Origin: Edaphobacter sp.
GTDB lineage: Bacteria > Acidobacteriota > Terriglobia > Terriglobales > Acidobacteriaceae
Direction of reading: 5' to 3'
DNA length: 64,000 bases
Assembly: GCA_050012935.1 (NCBI GenBank)
Contig: JBEKGF010000023.1
Location: 4,554-68,553, forward strand
Shown: positions 59,375 through 64,000 of the stretch, piece by piece
Layout: each line of letters opens with the position of its first letter
Numbering within the stretch: the first letter of the stretch is position 1
Translations under genes and position numbers: made by a program
The notes under the pieces: model-generated
Seen by the model: only the letters and a program-made list of their open reading frames with translations
Told to the model about the DNA's origin: nothing
Database searches by the model: none

Positions 59375-61204
59375 GTGAATAGGATCATGTTGGATTTTTT
59401 AGGCAGTTTGCAGCGGACACATACTTGTGGCCAGCTTCGCGCAGAGCAGAATGGGCAACCGGTGGTCCTGATGGGCTGGGTCAACCGGCGGCGGGACCAT
59501 GGGAACCTGATCTTTCTTGATGTTCGGGACCGCACCGGCATTACTCAAGTGGTGCTCGATAAGGAAGTGTCCGGCGAGGCGCATGCGAAGGCCGAGACGG
59601 CGCGCTCCGAGTACGTTGTCGCGGTGAAGGGCAAGGTGCGGCGCCGCGGTGCTGGCCTTGAGAACCCCAACATGCCGACGGGACAGATTGAGGTTCTTGC
59701 CAGCGAGCTGCTGTTGCTGAACGAGGCGAAGACTCCGCCGTTTTCTCCTGCCGACGATGCGATTGCGAATGAGGAGGTGCGGCTGAAGTATCGCTACCTC
59801 GACCTGCGGCGGCCTGAGATGCAGTCGAACTTCGCGCTGCGCAGCCGTGTGGCGATGGCGATTCGGAACTACCTTGTTGGGGAAGGCTTCCTTGAGATTG
59901 AGACTCCTTTCATGACGAGGTCTACTCCCGAGGGCGCGCGCGATTACCTGGTGCCGAGCCGGGTTCATGCGGGCAGCTTCTATGCGCTGCCGCAGTCTCC
60001 ACAGATCTTCAAGCAGATCCTGATGATCTCGGGATTCGATCGCTACTTCCAAATTGCTCGCTGTTTCCGCGATGAGGACCTTCGTGCGGACCGTCAGCCG
60101 GAGTTTACCCAGATCGACCTGGAGATGACTTTTCCCCAGCAGGAGATGGTGTTTCGCGTGGTTGAAGGTTTTCTGACTGCGGCGTTTGCGACGGCTGGGA
60201 TTCAACTGACTGCTCCTTTCGTGCAGATGACCTACGACGATGCGATTAAGAACTACGGGATCGACAAGCCGGATATGCGGCTGCCGGCGATGGTTTCGTT
60301 GAGCGATGAGCTGCCGGCCGAGCTGCGTGAGTCGTTGAAGATTGAGAAGGAGCTGCCGGTGCTTGGGTTTGTGATTCCCAAGGCGGCCGGTTTGAGCGGC
60401 ACGCAGAAGCGTGGTCTCGTCGAGGAGATTCGTGCTTCCTTCGGCGAGTCGGGCCTCGACTTTCTGGATGTGGCGCGGTTGAAGACGAACGCTTCATTCG
60501 CTCCGTTGGCAGAGACGATTGAGAAGAAGTTGAGCGCTGCCGCTGACGATCTGATCATTGTCATTACTCCCAGGATTGGCACTCCTGCACAGTGGAACTA
60601 CGATCCGCAGTGGATCTACAAGCGGGTTGGCGCGCTGCGGCTGGAGCTGGCGAAGAAGTATGCGGACAAGCACAAGCTCTTCGAGCAGACCGGCACGGCG
60701 GCGGACTTCAAGTTTGCCTGGGTCACCGACTTTCCCATGTATGAGTGGGACGAGGAGACGAAGACGTGGAACGCTGCCCATCATCCGTTTACGTCGCCGC
60801 ACGAAGAGGACATCAAGTCGGGCAAGCTGACCAGCGACAAGGGCGCCGTTCGTGCGCTTGCGTATGACATCGTGCTGAACGGGACGGAGCTTGGTTCGGG
60901 CTCGATCCGCATTCACCGCAAGGATGTGCAGGCGGAGATCTTCCGTTCGCTGGGCATGTCGGATGAAGAGGCGAAGGAGCGGTTCGGGTTCTTCCTCGAT
61001 GCGCTGGAGTACGGCACGCCTCCGCATGGCGGAATTGCGCTGGGTCTGGACCGGATTGTGATGATTCTTGCTGGTGCGACGAGCCTCCGTGAGGTGATTG
61101 CGTTTCCGAAGACGGCGAAGGCGATCGACCTGATGGTCGATGCGCCTACACCGGTGAGCGATCACCAGATGCGGGAGCTGCATCTGAAGGTGAACCCGCG
61201 CTAG
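59375..61204 (+). CDS. aspS: Aspartate--tRNA ligase, probably non-discriminating (Asp/Asn)
   Basis: RRRDHG (His, typical of the non-discriminating type), RLKYRYLDLRRP, LPQSPQ, RDEDLRADRQPEFTQID and PPHGGIALGLDR. Confidence 0.97.
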   Translation: MNRIMLDFLGSLQRTHTCGQLRAEQNGQPVVLMGWVNRRRDHGNLIFLDVRDRTGITQVVLDKEVSGEAHAKAETARSEYVVAVKGKVRRRGAGLENPNMPTGQIEVLASELLLLNEAKTPPFSPADDAIANEEVRLKYRYLDLRRPEMQSNFALRSRVAMAIRNYLVGEGFLEIETPFMTRSTPEGARDYLVPSRVHAGSFYALPQSPQIFKQILMISGFDRYFQIARCFRDEDLRADRQPEFTQIDLEMTFPQQEMVFRVVEGFLTAAFATAGIQLTAPFVQMTYDDAIKNYGIDKPDMRLPAMVSLSDELPAELRESLKIEKELPVLGFVIPKAAGLSGTQKRGLVEEIRASFGESGLDFLDVARLKTNASFAPLAETIEKKLSAAADDLIIVITPRIGTPAQWNYDPQWIYKRVGALRLELAKKYADKHKLFEQTGTAADFKFAWVTDFPMYEWDEETKTWNAAHHPFTSPHEEDIKSGKLTSDKGAVRALAYDIVLNGTELGSGSIRIHRKDVQAEIFRSLGMSDEEAKERFGFFLDALEYGTPPHGGIALGLDRIVMILAGATSLREVIAFPKTAKAIDLMVDAPTPVSDHQMRELHLKVNPR

Positions 61205-61787
61205 CCGGTTCCGTGGGCTCTTCGCGGGATGGGATCACGGCTAAGGACCGGGTCTCTTCGACGACGCTTGTGACAGGCTCTGCGATCGGCGTTTCAGGTT
61301 CGGCTGGAGGCGATCGTTTTCGGGTGGGGGGAGTTGGCGGTTCTTGCGGTTCGGGGTCGAGCTCGAGGCGAGAGAAGACCTCGATGATGGCTCCTGGTTC
61401 TGCGAGATCGAGGCCGCTGGGCGAGGACTCGACGGCGCGGACGACCTCCGGTGTGCCGGGTGCATTGTTGAGGCGGGCTGCGTTGGAGGATGCGAGCTGA
61501 AGGCCGTAGAGCAGTACGGTCGCGCGTTTCGGGTCGATGCGATTGGTGGCGAGGGCATTGACGACGACTGAGATTGCGAGCTGGACGGACTCACGGTCTT
61601 CAAGAACGCAGAGCTCGAGGTCTCGCCCGTGGGTAAAGTAAGCTCGGGTCTCGTCGGTGGCGCGAAAGTTGGCGTGGCGGGCGTGAAGGCGGTTGTGAAA
61701 GTAGCACCACTGGCCTCCGGTGAGGGCGGGCGCGTGGCATTGCAGACCGTTGGTTTTGATGTGACGGCAGAGCGGATATTGTTCCAT
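61146..61787 (-). CDS. Hypothetical protein with N-terminal C-x9-C-x10-C-x2-H zinc-finger-like motif, directly downstream of element copy 4
   Basis: CRHIKTNGLQCHAPALTGGQWCYFH followed by a helical LEDRESVQLAIS...RIDPKRATVLLYGLQLASSN block. AGGAG SD at 61796-61800. Confidence 0.75.
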   Translation of the reverse strand: MEQYPLCRHIKTNGLQCHAPALTGGQWCYFHNRLHARHANFRATDETRAYFTHGRDLELCVLEDRESVQLAISVVVNALATNRIDPKRATVLLYGLQLASSNAARLNNAPGTPEVVRAVESSPSGLDLAEPGAIIEVFSRLELDPEPQEPPTPPTRKRSPPAEPETPIAEPVTSVVEETRSLAVIPSREEPTEPASAGSPSDAAPASGDRSPV

Positions 61788-61804
61788 GACGTTGTCTCCT
61801 TTGA

Positions 61805-62080
61805 GGGGCTCCCCCCCGGGGGGTGTTCCTTAAAAGTGCTGTGGTTGCAATGATTTAGCAAAATGGGTCGGGCTAAATTCCTGCAACCACAGGGGTTGTT
61901 GGTAAATTCGTCTTTCTAAACGGGAAAAGCCCCGGAATGAGCTTCCGGGGCTTTTTCTTGACTCTATATATCCAGTATAGCGGATTGGAGGGAACTAATA
62001 CGCCAAGTGTAACTTGATGTTGATCAATGGGTTAGGTGGTTTTGGGGCTTGACATGCGATTTTTGGGCTGAAAACGCAGA
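61805..62080 (-). repeat. Dispersed ~300-bp non-coding element, copy 4 (ORF-associated)
   Basis: Reverse complement reads AAAATCGCATGTCAAGC-N10-CCTAA...TTGGCGTATTAGTTCC...GCTATACTGGATATATAGAGTCAAGAAAAAGCCCCGG...CCGGGGCTTTT, then GTGGTTGCA...ATTTAGC repeats. Confidence 0.85.
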
Positions 62081-62230
62081 TTTTTTTTTTGGAATGGCGG
62101 AAGTCGCATCAATGCAATGGCAAGATCAACAGCAGAGTGCAAACGCGAATGCGGCGTTGCACTCGTGGAACGATCAGACAGGCGTTAGTGGGATCCGCTG
62201 AATCGATAGCTCAAGAGAAGACTACGGGCT

Positions 62231-63058
62231 TTAGTTCATCCAGCGTTTGTCGTTGGGGTTTTTGCGGAGTTCGTCGGGGTCGACGTAGCGGCCGTCTTTG
62301 TCGAAGTGGACTTCGCGGTTTTGCTTGCGCATGTAGACCTCGAACTTGCGGGCGGCGCGGCGGCGCTTCCAGCGGAAGTAGTTGTTGCGGACGCTGAAGT
62401 AGCTCTCGCTAAGACCGAAGGCGAAGCCTCTGCGCGGCGCGAATTTGACGTAGAGGAAGCCGCAGAGCGCGCCGGAGAGTTGAAGCAGGGCGTTGAAGGT
62501 GTCGGCCTGTTTGAGAAGGACAGCGACGGCGATGAGGATGTAGATGGCGACCATGTACTTCGCCTTGATGCGGACGAGGAACCAGAGCAGGAATTCCTGG
62601 TCGCCGAAGATCATGGCGATGGCGATGAGAAGGCCGAAGATGCCGGACCAGCATCCCGCGGTGGCGATTTCAGGGCGCAGATGCAGGACGTGGGTGAAGG
62701 AGATTGCGGAGGCGAGGATGGCGCCGCCGATGACTGAGGTGAAGTAGAGCTCGGCGAGCCAGCGGGAGCCGAAGGATGGCTCGAGGAGTGAGCCGGTGAA
62801 CCAGAGGGTGAGCATGCCGAAGAGAATTCCAAGGATGCCCTGCTCGATGAAGGAGTAGGTGGCGAGCTGCCAGATTTCGCCGTGGACGACAGCGAGAGGT
62901 TCGAGGATGAGGTGGCTGATGAAGAGGTCGGCAAGATGAGGAGCGAGCCAGCGGAGCAGGAGGATCGCGAAGAAGGCCCCGACGTTGGCGAGGATGAGCT
63001 TGCGAGTGGCTCCGGAGAAGGCGGGGAGGCTGAGCGAGATGGGGCCTGAGCGACGCAT
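62231..63058 (-). CDS. Rhomboid-fold membrane protein lacking catalytic residues (pseudoprotease)
   Basis: Rhomboid architecture (GEIWQLATY, FGMLTLWFTG, KAKY). GxSG reads GCWSG with Trp at the Ser position, and AHLGG reads LQLSG. Confidence 0.75.
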   Translation of the reverse strand: MRRSGPISLSLPAFSGATRKLILANVGAFFAILLLRWLAPHLADLFISHLILEPLAVVHGEIWQLATYSFIEQGILGILFGMLTLWFTGSLLEPSFGSRWLAELYFTSVIGGAILASAISFTHVLHLRPEIATAGCWSGIFGLLIAIAMIFGDQEFLLWFLVRIKAKYMVAIYILIAVAVLLKQADTFNALLQLSGALCGFLYVKFAPRRGFAFGLSESYFSVRNNYFRWKRRRAARKFEVYMRKQNREVHFDKDGRYVDPDELRKNPNDKRWMN

Positions 63059-63117
63059 GGCTGTTCTAATTTCATCATAGCGGTTGAGCGTAAAAACGGT
63101 TTACACGTGGCGCGAAT

Positions 63118-63154
63118 AACCCACCTTTCCCGATAAAACTGCAAAGGATGGGCC
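63118..63154 (-). repeat. REP-like element, family A
   Basis: Reverse complement GGCCCATCCTTTGC...GGAAAGGTGGGTT. Confidence 0.6.
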
Positions 63155-63191
63155 GGGTGTTCCTCGTGGAGGATTTTTGGCGCTTCGAAGA

Positions 63192-63238
63192 AAATGCGGG
63201 GGTTCTTCCCCATCGACAAGCTCAGGGTCAGAATGACA
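63192..63238 (-). repeat. REP-like element, family B
   Basis: Reverse complement TGTCATTCTGA...GAAGAACCCCCGCATTT matches the copy at 55618. Confidence 0.7.
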
Positions 63239-63288
63239 ACGGTAAGGCTAGTTCCTAAGTTGAAATGACAAACTGTAATGCCAGCTCG

Positions 63289-64000
63289 TTAAGGTTGAGC
63301 GGCTGGTGGCGGGGTGGTTCCGGGGACGGGCCTTGTTCGTTGTGGCGGGACGGGATAGACGGCCGCGCTGCGGTGGCCGGCGGCATCGACGGAGCGGACG
63401 CCGAAGATGACGTTGTCCTTGGAGATGGGCAGGGCAACGTTGGTGTCCGTTCCGGCGGAGACGACGCTGGTCCAGTCGGGTTCGTAGGTGTCGCGGTAGA
63501 CGACCTCGAAGGTGGCTCCGGCGGGGAAGCCTGCGGGTTTTTCCCAGCGGAGGACGGTGCGGACGTCGTAGGGGGGATTGAGGACGGCGACCTTTTGAGG
63601 CTGGCCGGGCGCGGAAGCGAGAGTGGCGAGCGTGGCGGAGTTGAGGCGGGTGACGTTGGCGATGTAGTTGAAGTCGTCGTACTTGATGTCGTCGGCGTAC
63701 TCGATGCCGTTCTCGATGCGCGGGGTCTGGTGCTGGTGGTTGAAGTTTTCGAGCCACTCGGTGAAGCGGACGGCTGCGAAGCCTTCCTGGTTGAAGCTGG
63801 TGTGATCGCCGCCGCGGCCAAAGCGATCGCGACGGAAGACCATGACGGGATGGAAGGCGGGGACCATGCGCATGGCCATGTTGTGCGCCTGGCCCGGGGG
63901 TGTTCCGGCGGCGAGGCGCTCGGAGGAGGGGTGGAAGTAGGTGCGGTCGACGTCGACGATGGCGCGGGCGAGCTGGCGTGAGGGGGAGTCGTTTTCTGCG
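63289..64000 (-). CDS. M28 family metallopeptidase, C-terminal part (5' end outside window)
   Basis: Frame open to the window edge: ENDSPSRQLAR, RRDRFGRGGDHTSF, RFTE...ENFNHQH and an FN3-like tail (IFGVRSVDAAGHRS). Confidence 0.85.
   Translation of the reverse strand, partial: AENDSPSRQLARAIVDVDRTYFHPSSERLAAGTPPGQAHNMAMRMVPAFHPVMVFRRDRFGRGGDHTSFNQEGFAAVRFTEWLENFNHQHQTPRIENGIEYADDIKYDDFNYIANVTRLNSATLATLASAPGQPQKVAVLNPPYDVRTVLRWEKPAGFPAGATFEVVYRDTYEPDWTSVVSAGTDTNVALPISKDNVIFGVRSVDAAGHRSAAVYPVPPQRTRPVPGTTPPPAAQP

Follow-up and report, generated by a model that had tools for sequence, protein, structure and literature searches.

What is a rhomboid protease for when every residue of its active site has been replaced? 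This question is raised by a gene on the minus strand of a 64,000-nucleotide stretch of an Edaphobacter sp. genome (assembly GCA_050012935.1, contig JBEKGF010000023.1, positions 4,554 to 68,553), here called the window. The open reading frame (ORF) at 62231..63058 is intact, with 275 codons (62234-63058) and a TAA stop (62231-62233), and its product matches the Pfam Rhomboid family PF01694 over residues 60-205 (52.2 bits, E 9.7e-14, cut-off 22.6). A preliminary description of the locus had called the product a bacterial rhomboid pseudoprotease, and its ORF, Pfam match, predicted structure and structural neighbors confirm this identity. As read from its sequence, the protein is very probably unable to act as a Ser-His intramembrane protease and is kept by selection for a non-catalytic job.

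Active rhomboid proteases (MEROPS S54 peptidases) contain a nucleophile Ser in the GxSG motif of transmembrane helix 4 (TM4), a general-base His in the AHxGG motif of TM6, and an oxyanion-hole HxxxN motif with a preceding His in TM2. The window protein lacks each of these elements, and all five catalytic and oxyanion positions are substituted. TM4 begins with G135-C-W137-S-G139 (62642..62656), the former GxSGx nucleophile motif, in which Ser-201 of E. coli GlpG is replaced by Trp-137 (codon TGG, 62648-62650). TM6 reads L191-L-Q193-L-S-G196-A-L-C-G200 (62459..62488) in place of AHxGGxxxG; it keeps GxxxG and replaces GlpG His-254 with Gln-193 (codon CAA, 62480-62482, inside L-Q-L-S-G). In the TM2 segment (62816..62845), alignment to GlpG and to the canonical rhomboid of the same genome sets Glu-72 (F-I-E72) at GlpG His-145, and Gly-77 and Gly-81 (G77-I-L-F-G81-M) at His-150 and Asn-154, and further alignments confirm the TM2 register. 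The preliminary description had proposed Trp at the nucleophile position, LQLSG for AHLGG, FIE for FLH and GILFGM for HxxFNM, and codons and alignments bear out these readings.

The AlphaFold2 model of the protein, built on 58 homologues, contains six membrane helices (mean predicted local distance difference test score, pLDDT, 87.3; predicted template-modeling score 0.77). A Foldseek comparison with the PDB places E. coli GlpG first (TM-score 0.75, normalized to GlpG; probability 1.00), followed by iRhom1/2 and human Derlin-1 (7y4w, TM-score 0.55), with nothing else meaningful. Together, the model and the comparison identify the six-transmembrane rhomboid fold. The register of the substituted residues was set by orthologue sequence alignments. 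TVGASGAIYGL of active orthologues pairs without gaps with TAGCWSGIFGL of the window protein, and AHLGGA pairs with LQLSGA. The TM4 helix of the model begins at Trp-137, which matches Ser-201, presumably the start of the GlpG TM4 helix. Because the alignment to GlpG and the canonical rhomboid and the ungapped alignment to intact orthologues agree, the placement of Trp-137 on Ser and Gln-193 on His is unambiguous. The preliminary description had allowed that the neighboring Ser might shift into place; the orthologue alignments keep Trp-137 on the catalytic Ser, and Ser-138 is not conserved (A39/G23/S19 among 93 dead orthologues).

The window gene belongs to a tail-bearing rhomboid subfamily of the class Terriglobia. 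An orthologue search returned one match each in 146 of 151 genomes of the class; the class-wide orthologues were extracted from this search, and per-site counts were made on 93 dead and 15 live sequences. All extracted orthologues carry a C-terminal tail of the form RNxYYRWKRRRAARKFEVYM, RK and a final RW[VM]N, and the pattern [RK][RK]F[EQ]VYM with terminal W-[VMI]-[NH] is common to the window protein and orthologues of 13 families. The tail occurs once in the genome, each genome has a single tail match, and synteny with an M28 peptidase and housekeeping genes is common within the family. The window gene is therefore the positional orthologue of an active tail-bearing subfamily found across Terriglobia and not a duplicate or stray paralogue. 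Weak tail-like matches that end ORFs of similar size (mostly 243-317 residues) are present in 13 genomes of other Acidobacteriota classes.

Catalytic loss is limited to part of the family Acidobacteriaceae. Thirty-five residue-keeping orthologues from 13 families all read H, HxxxN, GxSG and H (one with K for N) and all carry the tail; the 12 families other than the window's contribute 30 sequences, each with the full catalytic set. Five Acidobacteriaceae sequences are intact (L015, L017-L020), while the dead ones comprise 13/13 sequences of genus groups g1 (the window's own), g2, g4 and g9, together with L021 (g8) and L022 (g7). Since the counterparts in sister lineages are still intact enzymes, the window protein represents a natural bacterial "dead" protease kept for another job. 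Reading frames are intact in orthologues from 109 loci, except for one TGA reported in L012.

Scanning species genomes for the tail motif gave 592 confirmed loci. Nearly all of the 80 closest are labeled Acidobacteriaceae, Edaphobacter, Tunturiibacter, Granulicella or Acidipila (four carry other labels), and none of these 80 has Ser and His together. The same holds throughout the dead clade of 93 species genomes, in which the catalytic positions are scrambled. The former Ser position holds W, Y, F, M, L, D, A, G, R, V, T and occasionally S (W52/D10/F7 being the leading counts at position 137, which is Ser in 15/15 active orthologues), and the former His position holds Q, E, Y, I, S, L, V, A, T and occasionally H. 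The 15 active orthologues keep the His, His and Asn of TM2 with little or no variation, but in the dead clade these places are scrambled. Among the best 120 of 3909 matches in the protein database, the closest homologues are 82-91% identical to the window protein and are named as Tunturiibacter or Granulicella "rhomboid family intramembrane serine protease"; Tunturiibacter is placed in Acidobacteriaceae, Terriglobia. This NCBI/JGI name is probably wrong for the dead clade.

In a maximum-likelihood tree of 110 orthologues, the 93 dead sequences form one clade (Shimodaira-Hasegawa-like approximate likelihood ratio test support 99, stem length 0.63), with the live Acidobacteriaceae sequences basal to it. 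Basal dead members keep partial sites (HSN..M..Y, HEN..S..Y and NHN..D..I, with H.N..S..Q in a metagenome representative). The TM6 His is the sole position gone from every basal dead lineage, from which we infer that this His was lost first and the remaining site then drifted. In the 66 sequences of the window's subclade, the Ser position has become fixed as aromatic (mostly Trp), the His position holds Gln or Glu, and the former Asn is replaced by the small residues G, A and S, one Asp excepted. The fixed aromatic together with the small residues at the former Asn suggests that an aromatic side chain now fills the former active-site cavity. Deep in the dead clade, the Granulicella-labeled L070, L071, L073 and L078 again have His in TM6 with Tyr at the former Ser position (G-x-Y ... 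H-L-[ST]-G), which is probably a secondary Gln-to-His change.

The number of losses is claimed only as one large event and probably more, since an approximately unbiased test does not reject monophyly of the dead sequences as a whole (p = 0.60). Parsimony requires two changes on the genome-derived sequences and seven when metagenome representatives are added, of which well-supported branches force at least two. A second dead lineage (L021/L022) is syntenic with the live orthologue found in a genome assigned the same genus code. The live G094 (L019/L121) and dead G108 (L022/L124) share genus code and synteny and have 37% rhomboid identity, and the dead alleles of G108 and G115 (L021/L123) are 74% identical, with flanking pyruvate kinase at 69%. 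Behind this pattern lie either losses that occurred independently, under very strong constraint, or the passage of a dead allele from one lineage to another.

The pseudoprotease gene is under purifying selection. The ratio of nonsynonymous to synonymous substitution rates (dN/dS) was estimated by the Nei-Gojobori method on 80 dead-clade pairs with at least 85% protein identity, as more distant pairs saturate, give inflated values and were excluded. The whole-gene median is 0.11 (range 0.03-0.27), with 0.12 for the membrane core (residues 17-206) and 0.06 for the tail (residues 207-275). Over a broader collection of pairs, saturated in part, the median ratio is similar to that of the neighboring M28 gene (0.36 vs 0.30). 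Codon usage looks native, with a G+C content at third codon positions (GC3) of 0.85 against 0.74-0.84 in neighboring genes. The preliminary description had stated that the ORF is intact, with host-like codon usage and a basic C-terminal tail, and does not look like a decaying pseudogene; these statements stand, and the loss is common to 93/93 orthologues of the clade, which goes far beyond a chance occurrence. It had also named a pattern that would speak against its reading, in which orthologues retain GxSG and His and this copy evolves under relaxed selection. Orthologues of other families do retain both, but no relaxed selection is seen here.

The strongest constraint falls on two cytoplasmic elements, the LPxFxG motif near the N-terminus and the tail at the C-terminus. 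The N-terminal motif, L11-P12-A-F14-S-G16 (63011..63028), is modeled with good confidence (pLDDT 85 for residues 11-20), and its Pro-12, Phe-14 and Gly-16 are invariant in 93/93 dead orthologues. The tail (residues 207-275; 62234..62440) is the most conserved part of the protein, with many positions invariant in 93/93. It consists of a PRRG segment, the basic helix RNxYYRWKRRRAARKFEVYMRK, an FDxxGRYxDPD hairpin and a terminal RWMN, and in the AlphaFold2 model it forms a long helix (212-245) and a short hairpin. Its conserved positions are P208-R-R-G, E218, R224-N, Y227-Y-R, K231-R-R-R-A-A, K238-F-E-V-Y-M, R248, F252-D, G256-R-Y, P261-D, D270 and W273-M-N, and its 70 residues (206-275) include 19 K/R vs 9 D/E. 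Pro-12, Phe-14 and a tail insertion, FDxxG.Y..P, are present in live and dead Acidobacteriaceae and absent from other families. Since the live Acidobacteriaceae orthologues have them too, these cytoplasmic elaborations are older than the catalytic loss. A PDB profile search with the tail gave a chance match to lactate oxidase only.

Constraint also extends to the membrane core. The dead clade keeps the structural rhomboid residues Trp-63, Gln-64, Tyr-68, Trp-86, Gly-89, Glu-93, Gly-196 and Gly-200, with Gly-196 and Gly-200 kept in 90/93 sequences. Trp-63 and Gln-64 of the L1 loop (62867..62872) replace the rhomboid WR motif; Trp-63 is invariant, and Gln-64 is found in 90/93 dead and 15/15 active orthologues.

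Comparison with known rhomboid proteins suggests what the retained parts may do. The window protein resembles GlpG and other S54 rhomboids (PF01694) in its six-helix fold, TM2/TM4/TM6 architecture, L1 Trp and TM6 GxxxG, and it is directly orthologous to the intact enzymes of sister families. It differs from GlpG in the absence of the Ser-His dyad and the TM2 His/Asn, and in a 70-residue basic tail and an N-terminal motif, both of which GlpG lacks. GlpG-type bacterial rhomboids remove orphan membrane proteins and thereby serve membrane-protein quality control (PMC7232013). The B. subtilis rhomboid YqgP (GluP) relies on a cytoplasmic extension for an adaptor role that does not involve proteolysis, and it marks a proposed route to pseudoproteases; when catalytically dead, it still presents MgtE to FtsH via its cytoplasmic domain (PMC7231995). 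YqgP differs from the window protein in being active and in having as its extension a metal-binding domain at the N-terminus, which has no sequence relation to the tail described here.

Derlins (Der1/Dfm1/Derlin-1), rhomboid-like proteins of the endoplasmic reticulum, are similar to the window protein in that they have a rhomboid fold without the dyad, WR-like and GxxxG elements, and a cytoplasmic tail, which in Derlins recruits partners. Derlins and RHBDL4 both recruit p97 by way of their C-terminal tails, according to a 2025 superfamily review (PMC12615303). The motifs of these tails are the SHP box and the VCP-binding motif. The likeness is one of fold only, as the window protein gives no match to Pfam DER1 at E <= 1, and unlike Derlins it is bacterial and arose from an active enzyme independently and much more recently.

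By analogy with YqgP-FtsH and Derlins, the protein is likely to bind clients or serve as an adaptor by means of its tail, without proteolysis. The ancestral enzyme may have had a second, protease-independent role residing in the membrane core and cytoplasmic tail, in which it would recognize transmembrane clients and hand them over to, or scaffold, a cytoplasmic or membrane partner. Within Acidobacteriaceae, one large clade (Edaphobacter, Tunturiibacter, Granulicella, Acidipila and others) has lost Ser, His and the TM2 His/Asn, and the vacated positions have since drifted; rhomboid proteolysis would be left to the single canonical rhomboid of the genome. What remains would be the protease-independent role of an adaptor, scaffold or chaperone for membrane proteins, with the tail as its interaction platform. 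FtsH protease and the insertion/ribosome machinery are candidate partners, both of them guesses. A broader and more tentative proposal, which is possible but well short of even odds, is that the whole tail-bearing Acidobacteriota subfamily is mainly a non-proteolytic membrane-protein adaptor and a Derlin counterpart. Its tail would recruit a partner machine such as FtsH, another AAA+ unfoldase, or the ribosome and insertase, and its protease activity would be secondary, given up by Acidobacteriaceae on one or several occasions.

Several points weigh against the view that a catalytically dead protein is kept here for adaptor work. The missing proteolytic activity is deduced from the replaced residues. 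The median dS of the close pairs is moderately high (0.50), and the Nei-Gojobori method is crude for GC-rich genes. The tail has no relatives in Pfam at E <= 10, and no operon partner conserved across families was found, the neighbors being housekeeping genes that differ between families. Finally, the adaptor role of YqgP requires an unobstructed active site (PMC7231995), whereas Trp probably fills the cavity of the window protein, so the YqgP analogy may fail in detail.

The best-surviving rival holds that the rhomboid core is a mere membrane anchor, with all function in the N-terminal motif and the tail, such as ribosome, nucleic acid or anionic lipid binding. The high conservation of these two elements, the low dN/dS of the tail and its strongly basic composition all fit such an anchor. 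However, the membrane core is constrained as well (dN/dS 0.12), and it keeps the hallmarks Trp-63, Tyr-68, Trp-86, Gly-89, Glu-93 and the TM6 GxxxG. A simple anchor would need no six-helix rhomboid fold conserved across 93 species, and this explanation is unlikely.

A less probable rival, with perhaps an outside chance, is an iRhom-like regulator or competitor of the remaining active rhomboid that sequesters substrates or modulates cleavage. iRhoms do counteract rhomboid signaling (PMC3149277), and a canonical rhomboid is available in this genome. The 5.36 Mb assembly (178 contigs) holds two rhomboid-domain genes, the second being a canonical rhomboid of 282 residues with HxxxN, GASGA and AHIGG on another contig (G000 contig C24, 46514-46966; locus L001, 1234-2082). 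Of the 13 genomes checked from the main clade, 12 have two PF01694 genes and one has three; the sequence of the second gene was read in this genome only. But the two genes are unlinked and belong to different subfamilies with 26% identity. Live members of the subfamily likewise share their genomes with other rhomboids, at 2-5 rhomboid genes per genome, and nothing connects the window gene with the canonical one.

The window protein is not an iRhom, Derlin or rhombosortase. It shares with iRhoms (RHBDF1/2) a dead rhomboid core under strong purifying selection, but it is not metazoan and has neither the iRhom homology domain nor the long N-terminal domain, its L1 loop being about 25 residues and its N-terminus 16 residues long. 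In metazoan iRhoms a Pro typically precedes the place of the catalytic Ser, and this single substitution is enough to inactivate AarA, a bacterial rhomboid (PMC3149277). At this place the window protein carries Cys. A Pro directly before the former Ser (GP[WYF], alignment position 136) is found in 12/93 dead orthologues, among them L050, L053, L073, L076, L077, L079, L083, L089, L095 and L112, and this sharing with iRhoms looks convergent. Rhombosortase (TIGR03902) was rejected, with an NCBIfam score of 10.5 bits vs a cut-off of 84, and an NCBIfam scan of the whole protein gave just sub-threshold GlpG and rhombosortase matches. A weak Pfam match to TMEM115/DUF1751 (PF08551) over TM2-TM4 (28.3 bits, cut-off 22) lies below the Rhomboid match; because active orthologues match too, it reflects a shared clan and not membership or inactivity.

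It is very improbable that the protein is still a protease with a shifted or non-canonical catalytic set, such as Ser-138 with another base. Ser-138 does adjoin Trp-137, His residues are available at positions 41, 49, 59, 123 and 126, and one subclade has Tyr at 137 together with His at 193. Against this, Ser-138 alternates with Ala and Gly, and per-site counts over the 93 dead orthologues reveal no alternative Ser or His that is invariant. The His and Asn of the oxyanion hole have also been lost, and a register shift finds no support, since active orthologues align without gaps. A neutral relic in slow decay is scarcely credible, since freely varying catalytic positions and the long branch (0.63) to the dead clade are outweighed by the intact frames, low dN/dS, 82-91% identical homologues, dozens of invariant positions and strong codon bias.

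The genes around the pseudoprotease are arranged on the minus strand in the order M28 peptidase, rhomboid, a 440-nucleotide spacer and a 213-residue ORF, with aspS converging from the plus strand. The M28-family peptidase (63289-64000) has about 525 residues and is cut by the window/contig end; it is full length in L039 (1911-3488), and the C-terminal 236 residues inside the window give no Pfam match. It lies upstream on the same strand in 54/110 loci, only within Acidobacteriaceae and with live orthologues included. Synteny with M28 was rejected as an explanation of the catalytic loss because the gene adjoins live and dead orthologues alike. aspS is convergent in 33 of the 110 loci, and neighbors across families include aspS, pyruvate kinase, a BrkB-family membrane protein, isocitrate lyase, malate synthase and an ABC ATPase.

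The 213-residue ORF (61146-61787, minus strand; spacer 61788-62230) has a Cys/His-rich N-terminus (CRHIKTNGLQCH...WCYFHNRLH) and no Pfam match, and it overlaps the 3' end of aspS by 59 nucleotides. It is found downstream of the rhomboid in just 5/110 orthologous loci and therefore looks like an insertion between rhomboid and aspS. No Rfam families were found in 60500-64000. For the rhomboid gene, no promoter-like site was detected, and such terminator-like hairpins as there are look weak.

Inactive rhomboid sequences from bacteria are not in themselves without precedent, since MEROPS lists "non-peptidase homologues". A full-text literature search, whose reach did not include the older surveys Koonin 2003 and Lemberg & Freeman 2007, returned nothing on the rhomboids of Acidobacteria or on any family of natural rhomboid pseudoproteases in bacteria. 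The 2025 superfamily review names no bacterial pseudoprotease in its passages on bacteria and prokaryotes (PMC12615303), and the YqgP study could merely hint at how pseudoproteases originate (PMC7231995).

The rhomboid pseudoproteases iRhoms, Derlins, TMEM115 and UBAC2 are central eukaryotic regulators whose origin from active enzymes is ancient and untraceable. The bacterial pseudoprotease clade described here evolved recently and carries a conserved tail. Its transition from active enzymes is sampled at high density, through intact sister genera and families, intermediates that have Ser or His alone, and a large dead clade under purifying selection. It therefore permits ancestral and back-mutation work, comparison of live and dead proteins, and a search for partners of the tail. 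If the subfamily is mainly an adaptor, its live/dead orthologue pairs would be a direct experimental system for the evolution of proteases into pseudoproteases.

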